A stretch of 64,000 bases of DNA from Candidatus Thorarchaeota archaeon (lineage in GTDB: Archaea; Asgardarchaeota; Thorarchaeia; Thorarchaeales; Thorarchaeaceae), in contig DXJO01000008.1 in NCBI GenBank assembly GCA_019057475.1, positions 73,943 to 137,942 on the forward strand, written 5' to 3'. Shown here piece by piece: positions 30,953-55,111 of this stretch. Positions within the stretch are counted from its first letter, which is position 1, and each line of letters opens with the position of its first letter. A model generated the notes under the pieces. The model was not told where the DNA came from. It saw only the letters and a program-made list of their open reading frames with translations, and made no database searches. A program made the translations under genes and the position numbers.

Positions 30953-31588
30953 TTACTGTGCCAGTTCTCCGATGAACTGCTTGGCAACTGCGACCGCACT
31001 GGTGGCATCCTTGCCAAACGCGTCAGCACCCGTGTAGTCAACGGTTTCTTGGTTGGTGTTTCCTCCGCCTATCATAACCTTGACATCGTTCCTGATTCCA
31101 GCTGTTCTAAGGGCCTCGATTGTTATCTTCATTGAGTCATGAGCCACAGTAATGAGTCCACTGAGCGCGAGAATCCGTGCACCGGTTTCATTCAGTTTCT
31201 CAATGAACTTCTCAGAAGGCACGTTTTCACCAAGATCATGGACCTCGAAACCGTTGGACTTCAAAAAGGCAATAACCAGGTTCTTGCCAACATCATGCAC
31301 ATCGCCCTTTACAGTTCCAATCACGATTTTCCCTATTGCGCTCCCTTTCTGTTTCTCAAGCAGCTTGGGTTCCACGAATGTCATGGCTTTCTTGAACAGC
31401 TCTGCTGACAGGATGAGCTCTACAAGGAAATACTCGTTATTGGCAAACCTTGCTCCAACGATATCCATTCCTTGCCTTAGCCAATCTAGTATTTGTGCTG
31501 GGTCAGTGCCCGCGTCCAGCTGTTCCTTGACAATGTCTAGGAGCTTCTCCTCTTCTAGATCGCCCACGGCATCAATGAGGTTTTTCAT
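30953..31588 (-). CDS. Corrinoid (B12)-binding protein of methyltransferase systems (MtaC/MtbC-like)
   Basis: A helical B12-binding_2 N-terminus, then a Rossmann B12 domain with DxHxxG (GDVHDVGKNLV), SGL and GGG motifs. Confidence 0.8.
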   Translation of the reverse strand: MKNLIDAVGDLEEEKLLDIVKEQLDAGTDPAQILDWLRQGMDIVGARFANNEYFLVELILSAELFKKAMTFVEPKLLEKQKGSAIGKIVIGTVKGDVHDVGKNLVIAFLKSNGFEVHDLGENVPSEKFIEKLNETGARILALSGLITVAHDSMKITIEALRTAGIRNDVKVMIGGGNTNQETVDYTGADAFGKDATSAVAVAKQFIGELAQ

Positions 31589-31647
31589 CGTGATTCACTC
31601 ACAGGTTTCCCTCGAATCGAGCCCCCGCATAAATATGTCCCGAAAAG

Positions 31648-33261
31648 TCAGTCGTGGACTGATTCAAGTATGGTTGCTTGAGCGAAAATATCAGCGAAGT
31701 TGTCGTGAGTAGCAAGCTCGTAGTAGTTTATCTTCCTTCTCAATTGCTCAATCACCCCGCGGCTTCTCCTGGATACCAGTAACCTCTTTGCTCCTTCTCC
31801 TGCGGCGTTACCCACCGCGATAATCCTCTCAAGGTCGACCGGGGGAAAGAGGCTAATCCGCAGCGCGCTAGACGGGTCGATGTAGTTCCCGAATGCTCCC
31901 GCGAGATAAATCGCCTTGATGTCCTCAGTACGGACATTCGCAACCTGCATCAAAATTTGGGTTCCTGCTAGAATGGCTCCCTTTGCTAGTTGAACCTGTC
32001 GAACATCTCTCTGCGTAAACATGATTCTGCTCTTAGATGCGTGTTCTCCAGCACCTACGACGAGATAGGCTAGCCCCGCTTTGGTGTCATCCACTACCCT
32101 TGCTGATGCTTTCATCCTCCCACCAGCATCAACTAGTCCGTTTCTCAGCAGTTCTGCTACGGTATCCACAATGGCAGAGCCGCACAGTCCTCTAGGTGCA
32201 CCGCCGCCAATCACTGAGATTTCAGGGGCATCGTCAATCTCTCGAATTGTTAAGTGCTCAATCGCACCATCTTGGCCTCTCATGCCGTGACTGATTGTCG
32301 CTCCTTCGAAAGCGGACCCAGCAGCTGCGGAGCAACAGAACAATTCGCCTCTCTTAGAAAGCACGATTTCACCATTCGTTCCTATATCGATGCCGAGGAC
32401 GACATCATCAGCAAGGTCTAATCTTTGGGACAGAATGAAAGCAAGTGTATCGCTTCCGACAAAACCCGCTACGTTCGGGGCGAAGTATACCTCTGCGTCC
32501 GGAGTGGATTTGAGGCCGATTTTTCTCCCATTGCTTGTGAACGCATCCCGCATCTGCGGCTCATAGGGGGCTAGGCCCAATGATGAGGTATCTAGACCCA
32601 AAGCGAGATGATGCATTGCCGTGTTGCCTACCACGACCAATCTCGATAGCTTGTTTGAGGGCACTCCAGACTCATTGCAGAGCATAGTACTTAGTTCGTC
32701 AATCTTATCCAGTACTCTCTGCTTAAGGAGGGTTCTGCCTTTCTCATCTTTCATAGCGTACGCTATTCGTGACATCACATCTTCGCCGAATATGACCTGA
32801 GGGTTGAGGTCCGCAGAGTTCGCAATCTGGTTGCCTTTGCTCAGGTCAAGCAGATATGCAACTATTGTTGTGGTTCCTAAGTCGACCGCGATGCCAAATT
32901 CTCCTTCATGTCCTTCATCCAGAGCGAAATCGCTTGTTGAAGAGACCCCACTTGCTAGTATTTTAGCAGCAGTGGATGTGTGAGGAATGACTGCCCTTGT
33001 GTCAAAACTGATTCGATGCTGACAGGCAAGTCGCACACCCACGTCGATGTCATGTTCTCCAATGAGTTGGGTTTCCACACGTGTGGGGGCAGTTGCAGGG
33101 TTGAGTATGATACGACATTTCCCGCACGTTCCTCGGCCTCCGCACTCCGAGGAAACTTGGAGTCCTACCATCCGTATCGCTTCGAGAATTGTAGTCTGCT
33201 CGCCTATGGCTATGCGAAGTCCCGATGGTTCAAGGATAAGGACGTGCTCTCGCAAGTGCAT
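31648..33261 (-). CDS. RACo-type reductive activator of corrinoid protein (2Fe-2S ferredoxin + ASKHA ATPase)
   Basis: An N-terminal plant-type ferredoxin (CGGRGTCGKCR...C) is followed by an ASKHA-fold domain. 537 aa. Confidence 0.75.
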   Translation of the reverse strand: MHLREHVLILEPSGLRIAIGEQTTILEAIRMVGLQVSSECGGRGTCGKCRIILNPATAPTRVETQLIGEHDIDVGVRLACQHRISFDTRAVIPHTSTAAKILASGVSSTSDFALDEGHEGEFGIAVDLGTTTIVAYLLDLSKGNQIANSADLNPQVIFGEDVMSRIAYAMKDEKGRTLLKQRVLDKIDELSTMLCNESGVPSNKLSRLVVVGNTAMHHLALGLDTSSLGLAPYEPQMRDAFTSNGRKIGLKSTPDAEVYFAPNVAGFVGSDTLAFILSQRLDLADDVVLGIDIGTNGEIVLSKRGELFCCSAAAGSAFEGATISHGMRGQDGAIEHLTIREIDDAPEISVIGGGAPRGLCGSAIVDTVAELLRNGLVDAGGRMKASARVVDDTKAGLAYLVVGAGEHASKSRIMFTQRDVRQVQLAKGAILAGTQILMQVANVRTEDIKAIYLAGAFGNYIDPSSALRISLFPPVDLERIIAVGNAAGEGAKRLLVSRRSRGVIEQLRRKINYYELATHDNFADIFAQATILESVHD

Positions 33262-33266
33262 GACTC

Positions 33267-34217
33267 CTAAGCGATTCGATACCGTGGATGCTGGCGGTCC
33301 ACGCGCGTTCTTGTTTCAAGCAGCACTCCTGATAGGGCAACGTCAATCATCGCCACTGATGGGAACACAATGGGTGCATGTTTGATAGGTCCATAGAGCA
33401 CAAAGTCGGCTCCAAGTGTTACTGGCATTAAACTCGATCCTACAAGAGCTGGTTTCTTTGCATCTTTCCCAAATTTCGGAACCAAGCCCCTCCAAGTGTT
33501 CACAGCATTATGTGCACCGCATCCCACCGGCACGCCGAACTTGTCCTTTATCATATGCTGCGCTTTGCATGCAAGGCCAAGTGTCAACAGATCGATGACT
33601 CCCGTATCGATGATAACATTCTCAATTCCTGCCTTGGTTGTTTTGTCTAGGAGCATTTCCGCGAGATCCAACCGCTTCGTAGCTGATGCCATCGCGGCGT
33701 TAGAGAAGGTCAGTCCCACTGCATGCTTCACGCCAAGTTCATGGAACGATTCCAACGCTTCCATGCTTGTGTCTGGTGTAATGGAATTCAGCATCACTCT
33801 GTCTAGGAATCCACCTTCGCGAGCCGCTTGGACCCCTGCAAGATTTACTTCTTCAGAACCGGACCCGTCAACCAGCAGAGGCATATCTGTGACGTCTACA
33901 AGGTGCAGCAGATGCTTCTCAATCGCTTTGGGGGACTCTGCGACGACATCGAGCATGCTTGGCAGTCCAGTAGCACTGGACGCGTCCACTAACGCATTCA
34001 GCAGCGCTTCTGCACTGGGCACATCAATAGTGCCCTCTTTCGCATTCTTGACAAGTTTATCTCCCGAGTGGAAGATGGAGCCTATGAGAACGGTGGGGTT
34101 GATGCCAGGCTTTCCTCCTATCCTCATGTTGTCAATCTCAAGAACTCTTTGCTCTGCTGTGTATTCAAACATCTGATCAGCACCCAAGGCTGCACGCTGG
34201 CTCATAGCTGCCTTCAA
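33267..34217 (-). CDS. MtrH-family methyl-corrinoid:tetrahydropterin methyltransferase
   Basis: Aligns by eye along its length with MtrH, for example GADFVLYGPIKHAPIVFPSVAMIDV against MtrH GGDFVLYGPIENAEMAFPACAMADI. Confidence 0.8.
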   Translation of the reverse strand: MKAAMSQRAALGADQMFEYTAEQRVLEIDNMRIGGKPGINPTVLIGSIFHSGDKLVKNAKEGTIDVPSAEALLNALVDASSATGLPSMLDVVAESPKAIEKHLLHLVDVTDMPLLVDGSGSEEVNLAGVQAAREGGFLDRVMLNSITPDTSMEALESFHELGVKHAVGLTFSNAAMASATKRLDLAEMLLDKTTKAGIENVIIDTGVIDLLTLGLACKAQHMIKDKFGVPVGCGAHNAVNTWRGLVPKFGKDAKKPALVGSSLMPVTLGADFVLYGPIKHAPIVFPSVAMIDVALSGVLLETRTRVDRQHPRYRIA

Positions 34218-38729: not shown

Positions 38730-39509
38730 ATGCCCCTCCCCGGACTCACCAAGGAACAGATGGTTGAGGTCGACCGCATCATGGTGAAAGAGCTCCATGT
38801 TCCCGTTGAATTGATGATGGAGCATGCGGGACTGAATCTAGCCCGGTTGGCCATTCGCCTTAGTGGGGTCAAGCCCATTGAGTATCTAGTTGTGGCGGGT
38901 TCGGGAAATAACGGGGGTGGGGGTCTCGCGGCAGCAAGGCGCTTACAAAACTGGAATCTTTCGGTAGAAGTGTGGCTGCCAAAAGGTGAAGACGCCCTCC
39001 GCTCGATACCTATGGAACAGCTAAACCGGGCAAAGGAAGCAGGCGTAACTATCTATGAAGGCGAACCGAAGGCGAGCAAAGGTCCTGAAGTCTGCATCTT
39101 GGACGCTTACGTTGGATATGGCTATTCTAGGAGGAATGACTCCGTGACTAGCGAAGTCTTCAGTTACTTGGCAGAACACTCCAACGTTATATCGCTGGAT
39201 GCTCCGTCGGGACTGGATGTGACTACGGGAGTCAGCGAGAACGGACTGTCACCAAGAGCCACGCTGACACTGGCGTTCCCAAAGATTGGTCTCCTTCGTG
39301 CCCTTGAGAAAACATCAGATGCGCTCTATGTTGCGGATATCGGTGTTCCATCAAGCATCTACAAAGATCGGCTTGGCATTGCGTGGAGTTCGCCATTTGA
39401 TTTGGTGAGCCTCTCCAAGCTGGACCGAGCATTTGCAGAGGACGCTATCCAACAGGTTGAGATCAGTTACGTAGAGGCAGAAGGAGTCCATTTCTGGGAT
39501 ATCAAATGA
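38730..39509 (+). CDS. YjeF N-terminal domain protein (NAD(P)H-hydrate epimerase-like)
   Basis: LVVAGSGNNGGGGLAAARRL is the signature motif. Confidence 0.75.
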   Translation: MPLPGLTKEQMVEVDRIMVKELHVPVELMMEHAGLNLARLAIRLSGVKPIEYLVVAGSGNNGGGGLAAARRLQNWNLSVEVWLPKGEDALRSIPMEQLNRAKEAGVTIYEGEPKASKGPEVCILDAYVGYGYSRRNDSVTSEVFSYLAEHSNVISLDAPSGLDVTTGVSENGLSPRATLTLAFPKIGLLRALEKTSDALYVADIGVPSSIYKDRLGIAWSSPFDLVSLSKLDRAFAEDAIQQVEISYVEAEGVHFWDIK

Positions 39510-39600
39510 TAAAGAAGTTTTAAGTGGTCCACTGGAGCCGAAGGCAAAACAGCAGAGAAGCGATTCTTGCATTGAACTGGAACGCTTTTGGTGAGCATCC

Positions 39601-40611
39601 TTGATCAACAAGATGACTGAGATATCTGACAAATTGGAGCGGCAGAGAAAGGACGATCCAAAGCTGCTTATCAAGATGCAGGTGGCCGCTCAGGGACAAG
39701 ATCCTCGTTTCTTCATAGTTTCTCAAATCCATCGAAGCACTCAAGATCTGAAGCTTCTGGGTCTTGAACAAGGAGATGCCTTCCATGGCACTCGCGTTTC
39801 AGGCTGTCCGCTCCTCTCACCCAGCAAATCGCCAGTACTGTTTGCTGGACCTGCCGCCTTCAATGGAAATTTTCCCCAGAAAGATGGCGTTGTAATCACG
39901 TTTGATAGAGATGAACCACAAGAACGAATTCGCGAATCACTTGTCAATCTTACAGAACATCCGGACCTTTCTGAGATACCCATCATAGCTCTCAGTGTTG
40001 ATTATGGTCAGGGCCATGCTCAAGCAATAGGTCACTCCTTTAATCGCAATAGAGATGTTGAGGAGATGTTCGTATCGAGGTGTGTTAGACCCGAAAGACT
40101 CGACGAGAGCGTCCTAGTGTTGTTATGCTCAGACTCGCGTGTTCATCCTCCTTTAACTCCCGTCGGAATACCCTACGCGATTCAAACTCTTGGAGCCTAC
40201 GTTTCCAAGTACACTGGTGCAAATGACGAAACTATGCAGCTGAATGATTTCTTCTCAGACTGGCTTTCCACAGACGCTAGTGAAAAACGAATTCTGATAG
40301 TTGAACATGGGGGATTCACCCAGAATGAACCGCCATGTGGTGCAGGGCAGGCATCCCTGAATCCAGACCAGGTGAAAGGAGAGTTTCTGCGCCCTGTGAT
40401 TGAGCTACTCCGCCAAGAAGCACTTCGATTCGAAGATGGCATTCCCAAGACAGTCGAAGATAGAGTTCTTGCAATCGGCCAGGCCACTGAATACAATCTA
40501 CGAAACTACCCTGCGATAGCCAGAGCGCAGGACGAAGGAGTTAGCATGGAATCGCTGTTTCAGATAGTGACAATGGACACTGTTACAGGCAAGCTCCGTG
40601 AGATTGGATAA
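39601..40611 (+). CDS. Hypothetical protein with beta-carbonic-anhydrase-like motifs in C-terminal half
   Basis: CSDSRVHP matches the beta-CA signature C-[SA]-D-S-R-[LIVM]-x-[AP]. A downstream H...C-G lies in LIVEHGGFTQNEPPCGAG. The last 12 codons are duplicated at 43920-43958. Confidence 0.4.
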   Translation: MINKMTEISDKLERQRKDDPKLLIKMQVAAQGQDPRFFIVSQIHRSTQDLKLLGLEQGDAFHGTRVSGCPLLSPSKSPVLFAGPAAFNGNFPQKDGVVITFDRDEPQERIRESLVNLTEHPDLSEIPIIALSVDYGQGHAQAIGHSFNRNRDVEEMFVSRCVRPERLDESVLVLLCSDSRVHPPLTPVGIPYAIQTLGAYVSKYTGANDETMQLNDFFSDWLSTDASEKRILIVEHGGFTQNEPPCGAGQASLNPDQVKGEFLRPVIELLRQEALRFEDGIPKTVEDRVLAIGQATEYNLRNYPAIARAQDEGVSMESLFQIVTMDTVTGKLREIG

Positions 40612-40690
40612 GGGCTTGTTGACATCATCACGCCTTCAAAGGTGACATACATACTATCATACAATTGCAGGTCCAGAATGATACTGGCAT
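40581..40690. repeat. Left copy of ~110-bp imperfect direct repeat flanking a 3.2-kb insertion
   Basis: gttacaggcaagctccgtgagattggataaggg.ttgttgacatcatcacgccttcaa...catacatactatcatacaattgcaggtccagaatga pairs with 43909-44031 at about 90% identity. Confidence 0.65.
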
Positions 40691-40789
40691 TCCCAAAGAT
40701 TGGCCTCCTTCTAAGGTTACTACTTAATAGGAAATCAGATTCCTGAATTTGAATGCGGGAGGTTATTGATAGTGTCAACAAAGGATAAG

Positions 40790-43700
40790 ATGCGCCCACA
40801 ATTTTCACATAATGATGCTGTCAGACTAGCCAAGACGATATATGGTATTGATTGTGCTGCAAGGGAATTGCCAAGTGAACGTGATAGAAACTTTCTGCTC
40901 ATTACTAAAACCAATGAGAAATACGTGATGAAAATTTCCGCAACCTCTGAATCCCGAGATGTCATTGATTGTCAAAATGCCGCGTTGCAGCATATCCAAG
41001 AGGTTGATGAATCAATAGCGATTCCAAGAATAATTCATTCTCTTAATGGAGAATTTGTTCCGCTTATTTCGACCGAAGTGGGACATGAGCATTTCATAAG
41101 ACTATTGACATATCTCCCGGGACGAGTATTCGCGAAAATTAATCCGCATACTATGAAACTGATGGAAGATTTCGGAAAATTCATGGGGTCCCTTTCTAGG
41201 GCATTAGAGAGCTTTTCGCACCCTGCTGCTAATCGCGACTTCTACTGGGATTTGAAAAACTCACCTCAAATGATTGTTGAATATAGAGAATTGATTAGTG
41301 ACAAGAAGAAAAGGGAAATTTCAGACTATTTCTACAATCTATTCGATCAAGAAGTAGTACCCCATATCCGAGAATTAAGGTCAAGTATAGTGCATAATGA
41401 CGCAAACGATTACAATGTGGTCGTTGATACAAATTGGACTAATGATTCGAGAAAACTCGGAATTTTTGATTTTGGTGACATGTTGTTTACTTGCACAATA
41501 TTTGAGCTAGCAATTGCTACTGCGTACGCAATATTAGACCATGATGATCCAGTAATGGCTGCAGCTGCAATGATTAAGGGGTATCACTCAGTATTTCCAC
41601 TAACAGAACTAGAAATGAAAGTTCTATTTCCAGCTATATGTGCAAGATTACTATCTAGTGTTTGTGTATCAGCATACCAGCAGTTTCTGGAACCAGAGAA
41701 TGAATACTTGGCGATAACTGAAACTCCCGCATGGCGGACTCTCAGCAGACTTAGAAAAATGCATCCTAAACACGTTTGGTACATCTTCAGAGATGCATGT
41801 GGATTTCCGCCAAACCCAGAAAACCCGAGAATAGTAAAATGGATAACCGATAATGAAAGTCACTTTGGCAATGTTCTGACTAAAAGCATGGAAGAATACA
41901 AGTCCGTAGTAATTGACCTAAGTGTCGGTAGTCTAGATTTCGAGTATCCTGAGGATGTCGTGGTTTTTAAAAGATTTTCTAGAATAATACAGAATAAGAT
42001 GGACGACCACAAGGCAGAGATTGCTTTTGGTCGATACGATGAAAGTCGTCTTATCTACACCGGTGACCAATATTCAGAGAATGAAGATCTCGTACAGAAT
42101 TCAAGAGTAACCCATCTTGGTATTGATATCTTTTCACCACCTAAAACTCCCATTTTCGCACCTCTAGATGGTATCGTTCATTCACTGAAAAACAATGACA
42201 TTCCATTAGATAATGGACCAACTATTATCCTTGAACATAACCCCACTTCAGATACTAAGTTCTATACACTCTATGGACATCTAAGTCTGGACTCAATTAA
42301 CGGACTAATAATTGGACAGAAAATAAGTAAAGGAGATGAAATTGCGCGCATAGGGGATTACCCTAAGAATGGTGGATGGCCTCCACATTTACATTTTCAA
42401 ATAATCACAGATATGTTGGACGTGGAGGGGAATTACAATGGAGCTTGTGGGGTAAATCAACGTGATGTTTGGCGAAGCATTTGTCCTGATCCAAATTTGA
42501 TTCTAAAGATTCCAGAAGATAAGTTTCCAGACCCTCTCCTAACTAAACAAGAGATATTACAGACTAGACAGGAGTATATTGGACCAAATCTGAGTGTTTC
42601 CTATAAAGAGCCATTGAAGATTGTAAGAGGATACATGCAGTACTTGTATGATGAAGATGGAAAGAGATACCTTGACGCAGTGAATAATGTTCCCCACGTC
42701 GGTCATTCAAATCCAAATGTGGTTAAAGCTCTACAGAAACAAGCAGCTGCACTTTATACAAATACTAGATACTTGCATGATAACCTTGTTAGGTATGCGG
42801 AGAAACTTATTGAAAAAACGCCAGAACCACTTAGTGTCTGTTATTTCGTGAATAGTGGAAGTGAAGCAAACGAACTTGCATTGAGATTAGCTAGAACACA
42901 TACTCAGCGAGATGGAATTATCATTGTGGATGATGCGTATCATGGAAACACCGATACCTTAGTCGATCTTAGTCCATACAAACACAAAGGACCCGGAGGA
43001 CGTGAACCACCCACACATGTAGTCTCAGTTTTCAAAGCAGATCCATTCAGAGGGAAGTTTGGTTCTGATGACTCCAAGGCCGGAGAGAAATACGCTTCTT
43101 ATATCAAAGATTTTGCTATACCAAGGTTGGAAGAAAGCGGTCATCCTGTAGCTGCATTCATTTGCGAACCCGTTATGAGTTGTGCAGGACAAATCGTATT
43201 TCCAAAGGGATACCTAAAGAAAGCCTATGAGCACGTAAGAAATGCGGGAGGCGTGTGCATAGCAGATGAAGTGCAGATTGGATTCGGTAGAGTTGGAAGT
43301 CATTTCTGGGGGTTTGAAACACAAGGAGCCATACCGGATATTGTAACTATGGGTAAACCAATAGGAAACGGACATCCATTAGCAGCTGTTGTTACAACCC
43401 CAGAGATAGCAAAATCATTCGACAATGGAATGGAATTCTTCAGCACTACGGGTGGAAACACTGTTTCATGTGCAGTTGGACTAGCTGTTCTTAATGAGAT
43501 CGAATCAAAGAACTTGCAGGAGAATGCATTCTCTGTTGGAAAACATATGAAAGAAAAACTGCTCGATCTGAAAAAGAAATACCCTCTCATTGGAGATGTA
43601 AGAGGTCTCGGACTGTTTCTTGGTGTTGAACTAGTAAAAGACCAGGAAGAATTGTTTGAACCAGCAGCAGAAGAAGCAACATATATTGTCAATAGGATGA

Positions 43701-43855
43701 AAGAACTTGGAGTATTAATTAGTGTGGATGGATATCTTCGTAATGTCCTCAAGATCAAACCCCCAATCATATTCTCCAATGAGGATGTAGATTATTTTAT
43801 TGAACGTCTGGAAACCGTTCTTAACGAAGATTTTCCGAGCGGTATTATAGAATAA
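40790..43855 (+). CDS. Tri-domain fusion: aminoglycoside/hydroxylysine-kinase-like phosphotransferase (APH) - M23 peptidase - class III aminotransferase (AGXT2-like, possible phospho-lyase)
   Basis: APH-type N-terminus (HNDANDYNVVVD, FDFGD). M23 (HLGIDIF...DGIV...YTLYGHLS...GGWPPHLHFQI). Class-III aminotransferase (DDAYHGNTD, ICEPVMSCAGQI, DEVQIGFGRVGSHFWGFE, TMGKPIGNGHPLAAV with the PLP Lys). Markedly AT-richer than its flanks. Confidence 0.8.
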   Translation: MRPQFSHNDAVRLAKTIYGIDCAARELPSERDRNFLLITKTNEKYVMKISATSESRDVIDCQNAALQHIQEVDESIAIPRIIHSLNGEFVPLISTEVGHEHFIRLLTYLPGRVFAKINPHTMKLMEDFGKFMGSLSRALESFSHPAANRDFYWDLKNSPQMIVEYRELISDKKKREISDYFYNLFDQEVVPHIRELRSSIVHNDANDYNVVVDTNWTNDSRKLGIFDFGDMLFTCTIFELAIATAYAILDHDDPVMAAAAMIKGYHSVFPLTELEMKVLFPAICARLLSSVCVSAYQQFLEPENEYLAITETPAWRTLSRLRKMHPKHVWYIFRDACGFPPNPENPRIVKWITDNESHFGNVLTKSMEEYKSVVIDLSVGSLDFEYPEDVVVFKRFSRIIQNKMDDHKAEIAFGRYDESRLIYTGDQYSENEDLVQNSRVTHLGIDIFSPPKTPIFAPLDGIVHSLKNNDIPLDNGPTIILEHNPTSDTKFYTLYGHLSLDSINGLIIGQKISKGDEIARIGDYPKNGGWPPHLHFQIITDMLDVEGNYNGACGVNQRDVWRSICPDPNLILKIPEDKFPDPLLTKQEILQTRQEYIGPNLSVSYKEPLKIVRGYMQYLYDEDGKRYLDAVNNVPHVGHSNPNVVKALQKQAAALYTNTRYLHDNLVRYAEKLIEKTPEPLSVCYFVNSGSEANELALRLARTHTQRDGIIIVDDAYHGNTDTLVDLSPYKHKGPGGREPPTHVVSVFKADPFRGKFGSDDSKAGEKYASYIKDFAIPRLEESGHPVAAFICEPVMSCAGQIVFPKGYLKKAYEHVRNAGGVCIADEVQIGFGRVGSHFWGFETQGAIPDIVTMGKPIGNGHPLAAVVTTPEIAKSFDNGMEFFSTTGGNTVSCAVGLAVLNEIESKNLQENAFSVGKHMKEKLLDLKKKYPLIGDVRGLGLFLGVELVKDQEELFEPAAEEATYIVNRMKELGVLISVDGYLRNVLKIKPPIIFSNEDVDYFIERLETVLNEDFPSGIIE

Positions 43856-43908
43856 GACGTAATACCAAGTCAATAGTTGAAATCCAAGAATTTGCAGGAT
43901 GCAATGGA

Positions 43909-44031
43909 TACAGTTACAGGCAAGCTCCGTGAGATTGGATAAGGGATTGTTGACATCATCACGCCTTCAAGACGCCTTCGAAGGTGATATACATGCTATC
44001 ATACATTTGCAGGTCCAGAATGAAGGAGTTT
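43909..44031. repeat. Right copy of direct repeat flanking the insertion
   Basis: Matches 40581-40690. It carries an extra internal gacgccttcgaa duplication. Confidence 0.65.
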
Positions 44032-44639
44032 AGTTTGAATATGGGTATCACGGGCACGCCTTCATGAAACTCGATATCCTCCACCATCCAAGTCACAATG
44101 ATTGGCACAAGAGAATAGGACCCGTTGGGTATGGGCTTGAGTTTTCGTGCGAGCCTGTTCATTTGATTCGCTAATTGGGCGGTTCTTTCCTTCTGCTTTT
44201 CCGCAGCGTGCGCAAGTGCCGAGGATTTCCCTGGTCTAATCCCCCACATCTTTGCATCTATGGACACGATAGTCTTTCCTCTCACGCCGACAACATCGAT
44301 TTCCATGCCCTTGATGATGCTGTTACCTCTTCTTCGGAAGCTCTCCACGCAACGGAATTCATTCTCTTCCAAGATTTCCGCAACAAATCCCTCAAAGTCT
44401 TTCCAAGTCAGCAGTTTAACAACCGTTTCGATGGCTGATCCAAGGGCAACCGCCTTGAAGGCGAGTGTGATACGGTTGCGCCTTGATACAATCCACGTGT
44501 CGTCTAATCCCCTGCTAGTCCCCAGGCTTTCAAGAACCCCTACCGTTCTTCTGTCCACAATCTCGAGAGCACTCGAATCCTTCGTATTCTTTAGGAGAAA
44601 CAGAATGCGGTCAAGGATGTTCTCGTCCATCTCACTCAT
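43959..44639 (-). CDS. Hypothetical PD-(D/E)xK (Mrr/restriction-endonuclease-like) protein
   Basis: EIDVVGVRGKTIVSIDAKMW fits D...(D/E)xK. Its C-terminal coding end is part of the duplicated repeat; the fragment ORF 40560..40808 repeats ILDLQ.YDSMY.TFEGV. Confidence 0.4.
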   Translation of the reverse strand: MSEMDENILDRILFLLKNTKDSSALEIVDRRTVGVLESLGTSRGLDDTWIVSRRNRITLAFKAVALGSAIETVVKLLTWKDFEGFVAEILEENEFRCVESFRRRGNSIIKGMEIDVVGVRGKTIVSIDAKMWGIRPGKSSALAHAAEKQKERTAQLANQMNRLARKLKPIPNGSYSLVPIIVTWMVEDIEFHEGVPVIPIFKLNSFILDLQMYDSMYITFEGVLKA

Positions 44640-46862: not shown

Positions 46863-48098
46863 GTGACCACTCTTACTGTCGACCAGCTCGACAAATGGTA
46901 TCGAAAGCGCTTGGCAACGCAGTCGAAGGACTTCATCAAACGCGCTGAGAAAAGCCATAAGAATGTAAGCCAGACTCTCAAGGATGTTGGGACGATTGCA
47001 GGGGATCTGGAAGACAATGCAAAAGACGATTCTGAAACCATTGGGATTGCCAGCCGATTTGCAATGAAACTGGACGGCATTGTCAAGAGATTCGAAGTTA
47101 AGCAGGATATCACATACGAAAGCACTGAGGCCATGCAAGAGGAGATTCAGCGCTTTATCCAGGAGTTGTGGGGTGCCGGTGCTCGCTGGATTCGCAGGAT
47201 GGATAAGAGGCACAAGAATACAATCAAAATGCTTGACACCTACATGAAGGAGCTTTCTAAGGAGATGAAGGTCCTTGGTAAGTTGCTTTACGAGTTCAGC
47301 TGGGTCAAGGACTTGGAACGCATTGGTGGGCGAATCCAGACATTGAGCGAACTAACCTACAGCGCTGAGGGGTTCGAGGAGCAGATCCGTCAGATTCAGC
47401 TCAAGATTGACGCGGCCACGAAAGAGCATTCAACTGCTGCGCAAGCTTACAATGAATTCACTGAAACATCTAATGTCGCAGAGCTGCTCTCGCTAGACGA
47501 GGAATCGGAGCACATCGCTGCGCTGCTCCGGATGAGGCTCAGCCCTTTGAAAAAACAAGTCAAGAAGTTCATGCAGCGTGATACCGGTGTGAGGGTGTCC
47601 CCTTCCAGTCAGAGAGCATTGGCCAATTACTTCGAGGATCCTCTGACTGCAATAATTGCAGAGCCTGATGGCACTCCTGGCTTAGTTGAGGGTCTAGAAG
47701 GCTTGCAGAAAGCTCTTGACACCGGCAAGTTGAAACTTAAGGACCGGCTAGCACGTCGTGCTTCTGAGGAGATTGAAGCGATAAAGAATGGCTCCATAAG
47801 CAATCTTCAACTACAAGCAAAGGAACTGGACGAGAAGCGTCGAACTTTCGCAGGGTCAGATGTTTACAAGAAAAGCGCCGCCCTCGCAGAGCGTTTGAAC
47901 GAAGCTTCAAGGAACTTGGAGTATCATACGAATGACCTCCTAAAGGTTGGAGCTGACATTAGGAAACAGATAGCTCGAGTTGAAGAATTCAAAACACGCA
48001 TTGAATCCGAGATACTGGAATTCTTTGAAGACACAATCTCAATTAAAATCGATAAGCTAGGTTTGGAGCCATTACTGGCACGTTGCGTCGTTAGCTGA
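46863..48098 (+). CDS. Hypothetical coiled-coil protein
   Basis: 411 aa. Helical heptad-like and charged throughout. GTG start. Confidence 0.4.
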   Translation: MTTLTVDQLDKWYRKRLATQSKDFIKRAEKSHKNVSQTLKDVGTIAGDLEDNAKDDSETIGIASRFAMKLDGIVKRFEVKQDITYESTEAMQEEIQRFIQELWGAGARWIRRMDKRHKNTIKMLDTYMKELSKEMKVLGKLLYEFSWVKDLERIGGRIQTLSELTYSAEGFEEQIRQIQLKIDAATKEHSTAAQAYNEFTETSNVAELLSLDEESEHIAALLRMRLSPLKKQVKKFMQRDTGVRVSPSSQRALANYFEDPLTAIIAEPDGTPGLVEGLEGLQKALDTGKLKLKDRLARRASEEIEAIKNGSISNLQLQAKELDEKRRTFAGSDVYKKSAALAERLNEASRNLEYHTNDLLKVGADIRKQIARVEEFKTRIESEILEFFEDTISIKIDKLGLEPLLARCVVS

Positions 48099-49090: not shown

Positions 49091-50122
49091 ATGTCCACCC
49101 TAAAAGACGCAGCATCTAACAAGCTTGAAGAAAAAGTTGACAAACTGGCAGAGAGTCTAGCCACGATTGTCAACGAGCTAAAAGTGCTTTCTTCTGTCAA
49201 GGACATGGCCAAGAAGATGGGCGCGCTAGAAGCAGAAGTCAATGACATTAAGACGGCACTAGATCCATTGTCCAAGATTGATGATTTGCTCGCCTCAGTC
49301 AATGGCATCGACAAGAATGTCGTTGGGATTGTCGAGTCAAGGGAGTACGAGGTCGTTCTGAAGAAAATTGATGATCTTCTGGTGTCCTCTCAAGACTTGG
49401 ATGCGGGACTAGCAGAGATTAGGAACTCCAATGCCTTGAGTGAGCTTGGAAAGAAGGTGGAGGCGGTGTCAAGCTCGGTGTCAGACATTAGCAAGAACAT
49501 CGAGTTCACTCGCGCAGGGCGCAGTCTCGAAACGCTGGAAACCAAGATTGATGACCTTCAGCAGTATGTCGCTGGTCTCTCATCGCTGGAAAGCAGCATT
49601 CAGGACCTCTCCGGGACATTTGATGAAACCCGTGAGATAGTCAGTATTATCGTGCGACAGTTGGATGACATTGAGCGCAAATACAACAAGTCAGTTGAAG
49701 AGATTCGCAAGGTTGTTGAAGATGTTTCACAGGTGACCCGTACGGTTAGTGAAGATCCATCTGCAATCAAGACAACTAAGAAAACCGCGAAGACTACAAA
49801 GCGCAAGGAAATTGAAAAGAAGACTCCGCCTGCGGCTGAGGAGATAGTACTCCCTGGCACAATCGATGGAATCATGAAGCATCTTCTGGAAAAGGTATCC
49901 CCTGCAACTGAGGCTGTTGAGATGGCCAACGCATTGGAGACCGTTCGGGACCAATTGACCACGATGATTACTGGCGGTACCCCTGTCTTGTTCCAGTTCG
50001 GCAAGAGAGCGAGGGAGCTCAAATCGTACCCACCAACCGCAACTTTGAACGAGAATGACATTGCTCGACTCAACAGTGAAATCCGCAACTGGTCAACCAA
50101 GCTAAAGGAAGTTACCAAATAG
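49091..50122 (+). CDS. Hypothetical coiled-coil protein
   Basis: 343 aa, helical, with a Lys/Thr-rich linker. Confidence 0.4.
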   Translation: MSTLKDAASNKLEEKVDKLAESLATIVNELKVLSSVKDMAKKMGALEAEVNDIKTALDPLSKIDDLLASVNGIDKNVVGIVESREYEVVLKKIDDLLVSSQDLDAGLAEIRNSNALSELGKKVEAVSSSVSDISKNIEFTRAGRSLETLETKIDDLQQYVAGLSSLESSIQDLSGTFDETREIVSIIVRQLDDIERKYNKSVEEIRKVVEDVSQVTRTVSEDPSAIKTTKKTAKTTKRKEIEKKTPPAAEEIVLPGTIDGIMKHLLEKVSPATEAVEMANALETVRDQLTTMITGGTPVLFQFGKRARELKSYPPTATLNENDIARLNSEIRNWSTKLKEVTK

Positions 50123-51196: not shown

Positions 51197-54100
51197 TTGG
51201 ACTGTCATTGGATGGGATGCAATTTGACTGAGAATGCAGTTGTAGAATATATGCCTGTCTTGAAGGCGAATCTAGGTCTAACAGACCTTGAAGCCAAGGT
51301 TATGCTGCCCATTTACTTGGGCGGGAACATGACACCTGGCGCCGTCGCCATGATTTCGGGCGAGAAACTTCCCAGAGTGAATCGCACTCTGGGTAGATTA
51401 GAAAGTAAAGGATTTGTCGTTAAGGTCGAGGGTGTAGTGCCTATTTTCAGACCAGTTCCGGCAGTACTCTCCATGACTGGTGAGCTCAATTCTATGGTTG
51501 AGAATATCGAGGGATTGGCGCATGCCTCTCTCAGTGCATTGGACAACCAGATACAGCAAACTGAGGAGTCGGCTGTTGAGATTAGGGACACGCAAACCAC
51601 AGCAAGTGAGCGCACAAGGACAATCCTAGAGAATTACGAAAACAAAATGCTTCAAACCGTGCTGAGTCAGGTAGAGCTAGTCGTCGATACTGCGACCAAT
51701 GTCTTGACTGGGTACTCACAGAAAATCGAAGAAGCAGTGACAGGGCTGGACACGAGTCTGGATGACGCTCTGGGGATAAAGCTGGCGGACCTTCAAGCTG
51801 AACTGGATAAAAGCCAGATACAACTCAAGCAGGACCTCAAGGTGATATCCCGCGACTTTGACAAGGGCGTCAAACGGGAACGTGCGCCCTCACTAACTGC
51901 ACTATCGGATTTCGATAAGAAAGTCCAAGCGCTCATCAAGAAGTCAAAGAACGCAGTTTCCACTGCACTCACAGACTCAGAAAAAGCAATTCAGAGTGTA
52001 TCCCTTGATGTGTCCCAGAAGACAAGCTCACAGGTTCTTGGCACCATTGATAAGACTCTTGTAAATCTCGGTTCTTCAGCAGATTCCTTGACTGCATCTC
52101 TCGATCAGTTAGACAAAGATCTCAGTCAAGCATCAAGGGTCGCTCATGACTCACTCACCTCTCTGATAAGTCAAACAAGATTGATGTCGAACGAGCAGGC
52201 GGATCTAACTCGCATAAAGATTCTCAATGCATTCAAGGTCACCGAATCTGCTACTGACGCACTAGATTCCTGGAAAACAGATGTCAGAGGAATCATGGAT
52301 GTTGCATCCCACTCCATGACCGCGCAGTTCGAGCAGGCGGCAGTGACAGAGCGAAACTACCTAGATGCAAACAAGAATACACTTGTAGCCTATCTTGACA
52401 AGATTCGCACCATTGTTAGTGAGGAGTACAGCACTCTCCAGAGCTTGGCAGTGGCGATTGACAGTGAGTTCGCCAAGCATCTCGACGAAACCAAAATATC
52501 GATGATGGGCTTATTCCGCAACGAGCTTGAGGCTGACGAAACAACCCTTGAGGTCGCAACTGAGAAGCTACGCAAAGACTTGAACCGATGGTCAACTAAA
52601 ACGGGGCGGTCAGTTAGAAGGAAAGCGTCGAAGGCTGGCAAAGAGGTGATCGAGGTTCTTGATGGCAAAATTGCTGAAGTAGACACCATGACCGAGAAAA
52701 TGTTCAACGAGGTCAAGTCTTCGCTTGGTGCAGTCACCGCAACGGCGGGCACTAAGAACGAAACAATTCTCACTGCCATTAATAAGAGCGCACAGAAATT
52801 CGAGAAAGATGTTGATGCTAAACTTGGGGGTGTCACTACACGTTTTTCCTCGATAGCGGACAAGTACGTCACTGGAGCGGGAGTGCTCTATGAAAATCTA
52901 AATACAAGATTCGACGACCGAGTCAGTCAGTCAGTCAAGTCCTTGAGTTCGAGCGTAGAGCGAGCACGACAAGAGATTGACACCATGATGGAAGACCAGA
53001 TGACCAGAATTGATTTCCATGCCTCTGAGATTCGAAAGGAGTTCCACATGCAGGTTGAGGATATCTCAAGGCAGTTCATTAACATGACTCAAGGATTGGA
53101 AGCTGCTTTCGGAGGGCTTGTGGCGAGTCAGATAGTCGAAACACGCGATTTCATCGCATCCACACACACCGAGTTCAATGCAGCTCTGAATGCTGAGATG
53201 AATGCTCTTCGAGATGATTCCGAGAAGCTCCAAGTCGGGTATTCCTCAGAGATGACTCAACGCATAGAGAATCTCCGAGATTCGGCGAGTGTAATGCGCA
53301 AGACCCTAGAAGAGCTTGCCAAGGAGAAACGGCTGGAGATGTCCTCCTCCATAGCGGGCACGCTAACTCAGCTTGAAAGTGCGACAAATGAAATACAGAA
53401 ATCGCTTGAGAGCCTCGAAACAGATACGATTAAGGAAATCAATGATGACCTAGCAGAGTTCTCCGAGGAATTCACAGAGGCTCTTACGACGGCCAAGACG
53501 AACCTCACTGATCAGCTTTCAAATCTCAGTGAAGCAACTACAACCGACCTGGAGCGGGGAACAAAGCTTGTCAGGGACATAGCAGACTCTTACTTCACGG
53601 AGCACATGGATTCCCATCAGAGGCTTATCGCAAGCACGAGCAAAAAACTAGATTCACTCTCAACTGCCATAACTACAGGATCATCCCGTAAGGTTGAGGC
53701 GTTTCAAGCGAATCTTGCGAAGTCTGAGAAGACTGGACTACGTGGAAGGAATGCTGTGAAGACCGAGATAGCGGAAGCAATAGAGAACCATAGGACAGAA
53801 GCCAGTCAGGCGTTTGAGGGGGCTGCTGCGCGGGTTGATTCCGGTCTATCGAACACAGCTGATTCTATTACAATACTTGGTGACAAGCTCAACAACGACT
53901 TGATGGCGGTTCAGCAGCAAATCGCCCGGGCAGCCAACGATGCCGCGAAGCTTCTCGCAGAGAAGAGCCGCGAAAATTTAGAAATACTTGAAGAAACGGG
54001 AGTTTCGCTCTTCCAGAAGGCGGAGGATACTTTCCGGGAGCACGCTGTAACCTTTGGCAACACAAGTGCTGCCGCATTAAAACAAGGTGAGGATAGCATG

Positions 54101-55111
54101 TCCGACCTACCAGAGCTCATTTCAGATATCGTGGATGGCTGTCTCAAGCAAGCGATAAGTGACGCATCGAAGGATTTCGGCGATGTTACGGGCAATCTGA
54201 CTGGATCTTTCTCAGAGTGTGAAAGATCTGCTGAATCCGCAGCCACTGAATTCAAGGAGTTCGTGGAGCGGGTGTCAATGAATGTGACGAAAGTTCGTGA
54301 TTCGGCCTTTGAGAATTCCCAACAAAGTGTTCTCTTGGCCAACCAACATGCATCTAGGAAATTCGAGTCGATCGGTTTGGACCTAAGAGCGCGTTTCAGC
54401 ACTGAATCGCATGGGCTGATTGAAGCTGTGCGAAATGACTCTGCAGCAAGAACACTACAGGTTACCAATGCAGGGATAAAAGCAACAAATGCAGCTGAAG
54501 AAACAACAGCGGTCCTGTCACAGTCGCGGAGCGAGGCGTTTAACAAACTGGCCACATCCACGGACAAGACCTTGACTCGCTGGGCGAACAACGAGAAGAA
54601 ACAAGCAACATCCTTGCACAAACAAGTGGAAGAAACAGCAACCAGTTTGACAGAATCTGTCAATAGGACTGTGGAAACTATGGAGGCAGTTCGTAAAGCT
54701 GGTGAAGGATTATTGAAGGTTTCAGCTGAGAAGACATGGTATCTGACAGGCGAGGATGAAACATGTGCTTACATCATGGACATGGTGCAGAGGGCTGAGG
54801 AATCTGTGGTCGTATCCGTTCTGAGCACAGAGTGTTTAGATCTGAAGAAACTGAGTAGGATGAAAGCACCAAAGCGAAGAGTGCTCATCGTACCCCATAC
54901 AGACGAACCAGCGCTTGAGGATTTGCACGGTTGGCGAATATGGCACGTGAAGACACCTGTACTCTTTGCGGTAGCAGATGACCGTGAGATTTTTCTAGGC
55001 GGGGCGGAGGAGTCTGACTTCCCGCTTGGCGTTGTATCCACGGACGAAGCGTACGTGCGCCTCTACCACGATGTTATAGGCCCCCGGCTTATACGTAGTC
55101 GAGTCCAATAG
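51197..55111 (+). CDS. TrmB-like protein: N-terminal TrmB-type HTH, ~1100-aa coiled-coil, TrmB-C-like C-terminal domain
   Basis: LGLTDLEAKVMLPIYLGGNMTPGAVAMISGEKLPRVNRTLGRLESKGFV is a TrmB-type HTH. The long middle section has a repetitive helical composition. The C-terminus reads TWYLTGEDETCAYIMDMVQRAEESVVVSV...RRVLIV. Confidence 0.5.
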   Translation: MDCHWMGCNLTENAVVEYMPVLKANLGLTDLEAKVMLPIYLGGNMTPGAVAMISGEKLPRVNRTLGRLESKGFVVKVEGVVPIFRPVPAVLSMTGELNSMVENIEGLAHASLSALDNQIQQTEESAVEIRDTQTTASERTRTILENYENKMLQTVLSQVELVVDTATNVLTGYSQKIEEAVTGLDTSLDDALGIKLADLQAELDKSQIQLKQDLKVISRDFDKGVKRERAPSLTALSDFDKKVQALIKKSKNAVSTALTDSEKAIQSVSLDVSQKTSSQVLGTIDKTLVNLGSSADSLTASLDQLDKDLSQASRVAHDSLTSLISQTRLMSNEQADLTRIKILNAFKVTESATDALDSWKTDVRGIMDVASHSMTAQFEQAAVTERNYLDANKNTLVAYLDKIRTIVSEEYSTLQSLAVAIDSEFAKHLDETKISMMGLFRNELEADETTLEVATEKLRKDLNRWSTKTGRSVRRKASKAGKEVIEVLDGKIAEVDTMTEKMFNEVKSSLGAVTATAGTKNETILTAINKSAQKFEKDVDAKLGGVTTRFSSIADKYVTGAGVLYENLNTRFDDRVSQSVKSLSSSVERARQEIDTMMEDQMTRIDFHASEIRKEFHMQVEDISRQFINMTQGLEAAFGGLVASQIVETRDFIASTHTEFNAALNAEMNALRDDSEKLQVGYSSEMTQRIENLRDSASVMRKTLEELAKEKRLEMSSSIAGTLTQLESATNEIQKSLESLETDTIKEINDDLAEFSEEFTEALTTAKTNLTDQLSNLSEATTTDLERGTKLVRDIADSYFTEHMDSHQRLIASTSKKLDSLSTAITTGSSRKVEAFQANLAKSEKTGLRGRNAVKTEIAEAIENHRTEASQAFEGAAARVDSGLSNTADSITILGDKLNNDLMAVQQQIARAANDAAKLLAEKSRENLEILEETGVSLFQKAEDTFREHAVTFGNTSAAALKQGEDSMSDLPELISDIVDGCLKQAISDASKDFGDVTGNLTGSFSECERSAESAATEFKEFVERVSMNVTKVRDSAFENSQQSVLLANQHASRKFESIGLDLRARFSTESHGLIEAVRNDSAARTLQVTNAGIKATNAAEETTAVLSQSRSEAFNKLATSTDKTLTRWANNEKKQATSLHKQVEETATSLTESVNRTVETMEAVRKAGEGLLKVSAEKTWYLTGEDETCAYIMDMVQRAEESVVVSVLSTECLDLKKLSRMKAPKRRVLIVPHTDEPALEDLHGWRIWHVKTPVLFAVADDREIFLGGAEESDFPLGVVSTDEAYVRLYHDVIGPRLIRSRVQ

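Follow-up and report, generated by a model that had tools for sequence, protein, structure and literature searches.

A tri-domain gene in a Thorarchaeota contig

We analysed a 64,000-nucleotide (nt) stretch of contig DXJO01000008.1 (positions 73,943 to 137,942, forward strand) from a Candidatus Thorarchaeota assembly, GCA_019057475.1; this whole stretch is hereafter called the window. It is archaeal by its proteasome alpha subunit, which scores 299 against an archaeal equivalog cutoff of 287. Our subject is one gene of the window, in which a small-molecule kinase, an M23 metallopeptidase module and a class-III pyridoxal phosphate (PLP) enzyme are joined on a single polypeptide (Table 1); its product is probably an enzyme of amino-alcohol breakdown, and the gene lies in a short insert of low GC content.

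The gene occupies one unbroken plus-strand open reading frame (ORF) that runs from a TTG at 40766 to the stop codon at 43853-43855 (1029 codons, from the ORF list and its translation); no internal stop or frameshift was found on translating 40766-43855. A first-pass annotation, made from the letters alone, had described a single ORF of 1029 amino acids (aa): this length holds for the frame from TTG to stop, and not for the interval given with it, 40790-43855, which begins at an internal ATG that as a start would yield 1021 aa. The frame being continuous, the concern that a frameshift might conceal separate genes falls away, and APH, Peptidase_M23 and Aminotran_3 are each recovered above their Pfam gathering scores, as that annotation had foreseen. 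The true start is most likely the GTG at 40772, because a Shine-Dalgarno-like GGAGGT (40758-40763) precedes it by 8 nt, because the resulting N-terminus, MSTKDKMRPQF, agrees with the consensus MxxxDxxRPxF of 32 homologues, and because a 98%-identical protein (P0001) is likewise 1027 aa long. Residues are numbered throughout from the ATG at 40790.

Table 1. Features of the tri-domain gene and its insert (window positions), and related loci on other contigs
Feature	Position	Strand	Basis or remark
Tri-domain gene	40772..43855	+	likely start GTG 40772, 1027 aa; alternative starts TTG 40766, ATG 40790
Kinase domain (APH/eukaryotic-like kinase fold), N-terminal, small-molecule type, residues ~1-337	40790..41800	+	Pfam, AlphaFold2 (AF2), Foldseek-type fold match
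Kinase K48 codon	40931-40933	+	invariant ATP-binding Lys
Kinase loop H202-x-D204-x4-N209 codons	41393-41416	+	D204, N209 invariant in 32 homologues
Kinase D227 codon, of FDFGD	41468-41470	+	invariant Mg-binding Asp
Middle module, residues ~340-580	41807..42529	+	Pfam Peptidase_M23; ~100-residue N-terminal extension plus M23 core
M23 Pfam core, residues 441-540	42110-42409	+	PF01551, 53.5 bits against gathering score 28.7
M23 zinc/catalytic codons H442; D446; H497; H533; H535	42113-42115; 42125-42127; 42278-42280; 42386-42388; 42392-42394	+	
C-terminal class-III PLP domain, ETNPPL/A1RDF1 phospho-lyase type, residues ~583-1013	42536..43828	+	Pfam, PDB, Foldseek
D826 codon	43265-43267	+	invariant; Asp contacting pyridine N
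PLP-lysine K856 codon	43355-43357	+	invariant; TMGKPIGNGHP
~3.2-kb insert of low GC content, holding a single gene and that gene's own spacers on both sides	40682..43901	.	GC, homology to L001
Left direct repeat	40571..40681	.	true 3' end of ORF A plus remnant of ORF B 3' end
29-nt YjeF_N-derived copy, left insert edge	40683..40711	.	27/29 identical to upstream YjeF_N segment 39269-39297
Right direct repeat	43902..44023	.	remnant of ORF A tail plus true 3' end of ORF B; 11-nt internal duplication
Split kinase-lyase loci	L093 6001-8159; L094 6001-8144; L095 1437-3580		
Thorarchaeota neighbours (PEMT-like, PF01663 or short-chain dehydrogenase)	L003 11037-11375; L004 16417-17523; L005 11817-12965; L002 7091-7942		

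An archaeal member of a widespread family

Taken whole, the protein is a member of the NCBIfam family PRK06148 (NF004799): it scores 1230.4 bits against a curated cutoff of 1128, its residues 3-1013 align with profile positions 9-1010 of 1015, and it is collinear with the family from end to end, in the identical order kinase, M23, lyase and with no structural difference. It is not a member of the sister family PRK06149 (NF004800), for which its 753.2 bits fall below the cutoff of 973. NCBIfam names PRK06148 (~1015 aa) a 'hypothetical protein'; to our knowledge the architecture was noted in the literature in 2012, or so it is reported. Among 5.8 billion proteins, the 120 top matches are essentially all about 1010-1070 aa long with the identical three Pfam domains; by name they come chiefly from Thorarchaeota and further Asgard groups, together with KSB1 and Blastocatellia bacteria. 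A scan of one genome per species located relatives in at least 597 species genomes; the best 80 loci belong mostly to Acidobacteriota, Chloroflexota, Gemmatimonadota, Desulfobacterota, Bacteroidota, Proteobacteria, Planctomycetota and Nitrospirota, alongside a few Asgard genomes. The rarity that the first-pass annotation implied is not borne out: the gene is an additional archaeal member of a family that is already catalogued and widespread, and in itself it adds little. It differs from PRK06148 at large in its host, being Asgard archaeal where the family diversity sampled here is mostly bacterial.

In a rough neighbour-joining tree of 57 tri-domain proteins, built without support values, all archaeal sequences form one clade nested among bacteria, in which a Thorarchaeota sequence is the sister of the window protein. 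This topology suggests that the tri-domain gene passed once from bacteria to Asgard archaea and that the family may be of bacterial origin. The Asgard clade comprises Thor-, Hermod-, Hod-, Odin- and 'Prometh'-archaeota together with one sequence labelled Pacearchaeota, and lies next to KSB1 and Blastocatellia.

Conservation was read from an alignment of the 32 tri-domain homologues, which are 52-73% identical to the window protein. Residues K48, D204, N209, D227, H442, D446, H464, H533, H535, D826 and K856 are invariant across all of them, and since active-site residues are thus kept in every domain, we conclude that all three active sites are under purifying selection.

The kinase and phospho-lyase-type domains

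The N-terminal domain has the features of the APH family: Pfam APH (PF01636) matches residues 26-266 at 68.3 bits (gathering score 23.2; E 1e-18), and the domain contains the HxDxxxxN loop (H202-N-D204-x4-N209), the DFG-like Asp D227 and the Lys K48. When the N-terminal 581 residues were compared with the PDB by phmmer, only M23 chains were matched and no solved kinase was recovered; the kinase is therefore assigned by fold. Its AF2 model has a pLDDT (predicted local distance difference test) of 92, and the closest solved folds are the type-II homoserine kinase 2ppq, the amicoumacin kinase AmiN and the aminopropanol kinase 6ef6, all at 13-16% identity. The last of these, from a mycobacterial microcompartment, is an APH-fold amino-alcohol kinase that superposes on the modelled domain with template modelling (TM) scores of 0.71/0.75; it has a partner phospholyase, which gives a comparable kinase-lyase pathway logic. 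On the other hand, its sequence identity is 14%, the microcompartment enzymes are encoded by separate genes, and an M23 module is absent.

The C-terminal domain is a class-III PLP enzyme of fold type I: Pfam Aminotran_3 (PF00202) matches residues 608-1011 at 267.9 bits (gathering score 30.5; E 2e-79), with K856 as the Schiff-base lysine and D826 intact. The first-pass annotation had seen an intact PLP-lysine context, and its observation stands, TMGKPIGNGHP here corresponding to TMGKPMGNGHP in human ETNPPL. Among solved structures the domain groups with the phospho-lyases ETNPPL and A1RDF1 and not with transaminases: human ETNPPL (6tor) matches at 474 bits, with 52% identity and, by Foldseek on the AF2 model, a TM score of 0.86; A1RDF1 (5g4i), the phospholyase of Arthrobacter, matches at 328 bits and 40% identity, whereas every ordinary class-III transaminase, racemase or decarboxylase in the PDB scores 193 bits or less. 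Likewise, dozens of NCBIfam transaminase models match at 180-270 bits and none attains its cutoff; nor is the domain a member of the PbfA (R)-1-hydroxy-2-aminoethylphosphonate ammonia-lyase family (NF049939), at 219.7 bits against a cutoff of 525. The likeness to ETNPPL (AGXT2L1) extends over ~405 residues and includes the shared motifs TMGKP(I/M)GNGHP and, N-terminally, NNV(P/A)HVGH; ETNPPL and PHYKPL (AGXT2L2), however, are stand-alone animal enzymes, whereas here the lyase domain follows a kinase and an M23 module on the same chain. A1RDF1 from Arthrobacter aurescens (5g4i/5g4j), a bacterial class-III 'transaminase homologue' entered in the PDB as a phospholyase, is also stand-alone, and is less close to the window domain than is human ETNPPL.

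The M23 module

Between the two lies an M23 core that, with its extension, makes up a unit of ~240 residues. The zinc ligands that the first-pass annotation wished to see checked are in place: H442-x3-D446 supplies HxxxD and H533-x-H535 supplies HxH, with H497 in the sequence YGH497L, and these motifs align with ShyA and other solved M23 enzymes, LytM and TagE among them. H497 is conserved in at least 90% of the 32 homologues. Because zinc ligands and catalytic histidines are strictly conserved, hydrolytic activity is predicted to be retained, and we take the module to be catalytically active.

We also found stand-alone homologues of this module, of ~215-265 aa, that are 39-49% identical to it over almost its entire length. 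They occur in Thalassospira (P0128, L007 7001-7795), Emticicia (P0222, L009), Carboxylicivirga and Psychroserpens, and in two records labelled DPANN, a Woesearchaeota (P0198, L011, locus confirmed) and a Tiddalikarchaeum (P0167). They share the invariant H/D/H/H/H set and the motifs GRYxExR, DYGPTIILEH, FYTLYGHLS, NGxWPPHLHFQ and CPDPNLIL; judged by eye, no hydrophobic signal sequence is present at their N-termini. Their scores are 137-205 bits on the middle of the PRK06148 profile and 33 bits or less on the peptidoglycan M23 models of NCBIfam, and no dedicated family model exists for them. Stand-alone modules align to discrete segments of PRK06148 (M23 to 325-581, lyase to 582-1009).

An exhaustive HMMER search of 1.84 billion representatives delimited the subfamily to only 433 clusters (E≤1e-30). 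Of the 150 best of these 433, 40 are full tri-domain proteins and 43 are of 340 aa or less, and in 84 the module begins at least 320 residues in, that is, behind a kinase-sized N-terminus; from these lengths and positions we conclude that the subfamily resides mainly in the tri-domain fusion. Because a stand-alone copy is present in one Woesearchaeota assembly, the subfamily is not specific to cell-wall-bearing bacteria.

With LytM, lysostaphin, ShyA and MepM the module shares the M23 fold signature and the complete HxxxD / H / HxH set. It does not belong to their peptidoglycan-lytic class, given its internal position in a protein with an ATP-using and a PLP-using domain, its archaeal host, the absence of signal sequences from its relatives and the low scores on the peptidoglycan models. 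It differs from that class further in that matches to it are weak (E 3e-5 to 0.02), in that the module lacks a signal peptide and a targeting domain, in its own ~100-residue extension, and in that the subfamily is found mostly within this tri-domain fusion and also in archaeal assemblies. The view that an M23 domain makes little sense in an archaeon is thus not sustained, since the module is an invariant part of a family to which the rough tree assigns a bacterial origin, and its subfamily is one without signal peptides. We suggest that a conserved, apparently catalytic M23 module defines a subfamily that lacks signal peptides and is unrelated to cell walls.

Anatomy and transfer of the insert

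The first-pass annotation had held that the gene arrived on an inserted cassette, and three lines of evidence agree: a GC dip confined to the gene, direct repeats of ~111 nt on either side, and a donor-like relative of low GC content. The gene has a GC fraction of 0.398 and a GC3 (GC at third codon positions) of 0.319, against a GC of 0.491 for the rest of the window and a GC3 of 0.44-0.68 for neighbouring ORFs. Inside the 3.2-kb insert we found no integrase, transposase or recombinase. The two repeat copies are identical at 96% and 89% over two blocks (repeat search D1/D2, pairwise alignment), and the repeat matches the point at which the 3' ends of two convergent ORFs abut, ORF A (39601-40611, +; 336 aa) and ORF B (43959-44639, -; 226 aa), neither of which has a Pfam or NCBIfam match.

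The closest homologue outside this population is encoded on a Thorarchaeota contig (L001) at 73% aa identity, with 74% nt identity over 40713-43869; that contig has 37-40% GC, and the homologue's GC3 of 0.314 is like that of the window gene. The donor was therefore a lower-GC relative and not a bacterium, and the gene would have come from another Thorarchaeota-like lineage, inserted by itself, as a low-GC segment, where it now lies. In other Thorarchaeota the tri-domain gene stands in different, partly syntenic surroundings.

The gene is also present, in a different arrangement and together with the flanking repeat, on two independent metagenome contigs, L006 (95.5% nt identity) and L096 (98.2%). 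Neither L006 (575-640) nor L096 has window positions 39298-40682, a segment that takes in the 3' portion of YjeF_N, the whole of ORF A and the left repeat; in both, a truncated YjeF_N is joined to the cassette through a 29-mer that is a hybrid of the two copies. There are thus two structural alleles in nature, and the difference between them is consistent with deletion between the 29-nt repeats or with a circularised fragment having integrated in Campbell fashion. A search for an 'empty site' allele with a 33-mer repeat probe matched only another cassette-bearing contig. The locus is of interest as a clean single-gene transfer within Asgard archaea, with flanking duplications that are unusually long and two structural alleles.

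A proposed kinase-lyase pathway

Evidence that the kinase and the lyase act together was derived from loci in which they are not fused. Stand-alone kinase genes of 307-312 aa, ~41% identical to the window kinase, overlap by 4 nt with a downstream class-III gene, the 407-aa product of which is 55% identical to the window C-terminal domain and has ETNPPL (6tor) as its best PDB match; from these overlapping pairs it follows that kinase and lyase are functionally linked even when unfused. One stand-alone kinase (P0319) covers positions 16-327 of the PRK06148 profile and, after PRK06148/PRK06149, matches ThrB-alt homoserine kinase best, at 47-49 bits. A GDSL lipase gene is also found near the split kinase-lyase pair in all three loci.

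Bearing in mind these gene pairs and the scores for ETNPPL and A1RDF1, which lend support at the level of homology to the kinase-plus-phospho-lyase logic of the first-pass annotation, we consider it probable that the protein phosphorylates an amino alcohol, from which phosphate and ammonia are then eliminated, leaving an aldehyde. The steps are drawn from family membership and gene linkage. In the first, the APH-fold kinase would transfer phosphate from ATP to the hydroxyl group of a small amino alcohol; in the next, the ETNPPL-type PLP domain would hold the phospho-amine as an external aldimine at K856, whereupon phosphate would be eliminated and ammonia released together with an aldehyde (acetaldehyde, were the substrate ethanolamine). 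Ethanolamine is the likeliest substrate, since the lyase is close to ETNPPL and ethanolamine is common; 1-aminopropan-2-ol and 5-hydroxylysine are the alternative candidates. PRK06148 could then represent an ATP-dependent degradation of amino alcohols (ethanolamine) in many bacterial phyla and in Asgard archaea, by a route that makes no use of the B12-dependent ethanolamine ammonia-lyase.

In animals, HYKK/AGPHD1 and PHYKPL work by the same logic, in which an APH-family kinase acts first and an AGXT2L-type ammoniophospholyase second; these enzymes differ in being separate proteins and in lacking M23. In 2012 Veiga-da-Cunha and colleagues (J Biol Chem 287:7246) identified hydroxylysine kinase and the two ammoniophospholyases. 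The kinase-then-lyase idea is not new: the clue to the human enzymes is said to have been that bacteria have 'bi- or tri-functional' proteins in which AGXT2L homologues are fused with an APH-type kinase, and since such fusions reportedly prompted the discovery, the first-pass idea is the published rationale in reverse.

The M23 module, with no sign of export, is the sole puzzling element of the gene. It may be an active intracellular zinc amidase that frees the amino alcohol from an amide conjugate (N-acyl- or peptidyl-ethanolamine, or a related amine), the cleaved amide bond delivering an amine or amino alcohol to the kinase-lyase route, so that a three-step pathway would be run on one polypeptide; although such cleavage is the likeliest and most economical role that we can propose for the module, it is the weakest and most speculative step of the scheme, and we advance it tentatively and with doubt. 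Its order of amidase, kinase and lyase would resemble that of ceramidase, sphingosine kinase and sphingosine-1-phosphate lyase, and, if true, it would give the whole M23 subfamily, common to bacteria and archaea, a function other than on peptidoglycan. Alternatively, the module may be a non-catalytic scaffold or regulatory domain that positions the kinase by the dimeric PLP domain, or that binds a ligand or metal, leaving an enzyme of two steps: the two-gene kinase-lyase operons do without M23, the module is placed as a linker between two catalytic domains, and the gene context of its stand-alone relatives is uninformative. Non-catalytic LytM-type domains such as EnvC and NlpD, however, have lost the zinc ligands and catalytic histidines, whereas here these residues are invariant in fused and stand-alone relatives alike, and we regard a scaffold as a serious possibility, albeit an unlikely one.

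Were the protein to act on 5-hydroxylysine, as the animal HYKK/PHYKPL pair does, it would form 2-aminoadipate semialdehyde, and the M23 module might free hydroxylysine from Gly-rich collagen-like peptides; M23 enzymes typically cleave beside glycine, the first-pass annotation drew the analogy with the animal enzymes, and Veiga-da-Cunha and colleagues reportedly tied the bacterial fusions to HYKK in 2012. We nonetheless think this improbable, in view of the 52% identity of the lyase to ETNPPL (a comparison made without PHYKPL), the expected scarcity of free hydroxylysine in Asgard-archaeal sediments, and the lack of lysine- or aminoadipate-pathway genes near the tri-domain gene. Less likely still is the reading of the C-terminal domain as an ordinary class-III aminotransferase or racemase, in a fusion that makes or modifies an aminated compound: the domain does belong to Aminotran_3 and matches many transaminase models, yet the shortfall of each from its cutoff and the lead of the two phospho-lyases over other solved enzymes both speak against it, and genetic coupling to a kinase suits a phosphorylated substrate. 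An assembly chimera, or a decaying pseudogene acquired horizontally, might be suspected from the unusual GC content and flanking repeats; we rejected this as having next to no likelihood, given an intact frame that retains all catalytic residues, the two independent contigs, thousands of collinear homologues, and repeat copies that have diverged in a way unlike an assembler artefact.

Several observations weigh against the proposal of an ethanolamine-degrading enzyme with an active amidase. The split kinase-lyase loci contain no M23 gene, the module being dispensable for the coupling, and conversely no kinase, lyase or recurrent neighbour was found near the stand-alone M23 genes at the Thalassospira, Emticicia and Woesearchaeota loci. 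The sequence does not separate ethanolamine from hydroxylysine, PHYKPL and HYKK having been outside the comparison, and neither an aldehyde dehydrogenase nor a transporter is consistently adjacent in 80 loci of the tri-domain gene. Furthermore, literature searches gave no paper in which the tri-domain protein, PRK06148 or a fusion of M23 with an aminotransferase is described or characterised, enzymatic data for any family member were not found, and 'hypothetical protein' persists as the NCBIfam name.

Gene neighbourhood

Clustering of neighbour ORFs across the same 80 loci disclosed no conserved neighbour of the tri-domain gene: the commonest family is present in 7 of the 80, and reflects housekeeping synteny (topoisomerase I, XerC-like and DprA-like, by eye). 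Because no neighbour family is conserved, we read the gene as a self-contained unit, which fits a self-sufficient catabolic module able to move as a single gene. Five Thorarchaeota loci share merely partial lineage synteny (glutamine synthetase/AsnC, SCP2, PanB), and, with these and the 80-locus clustering in hand, we rejected gene context as an uninformative clue to the substrate. In some Thorarchaeota a PEMT-like phospholipid methyltransferase (one locus), a PF01663 phosphodiesterase (two loci) or a short-chain dehydrogenase lies nearby, a weak and non-recurrent hint at lipid head-group or aldehyde metabolism.

Elsewhere in the window, three adjoining minus-strand ORFs at 30953-34217 look by eye like a corrinoid-dependent methyltransferase set, putatively made up of a B12-binding protein, a 2Fe-2S/ASKHA RamA-like activator and an MtrH-like methyltransferase. 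Downstream of the cassette there are further long ORFs at 46863-48098 and 49091-50122, and a 1304-aa ORF at 51197-55111 (+) that is of low complexity and coiled-coil-like.

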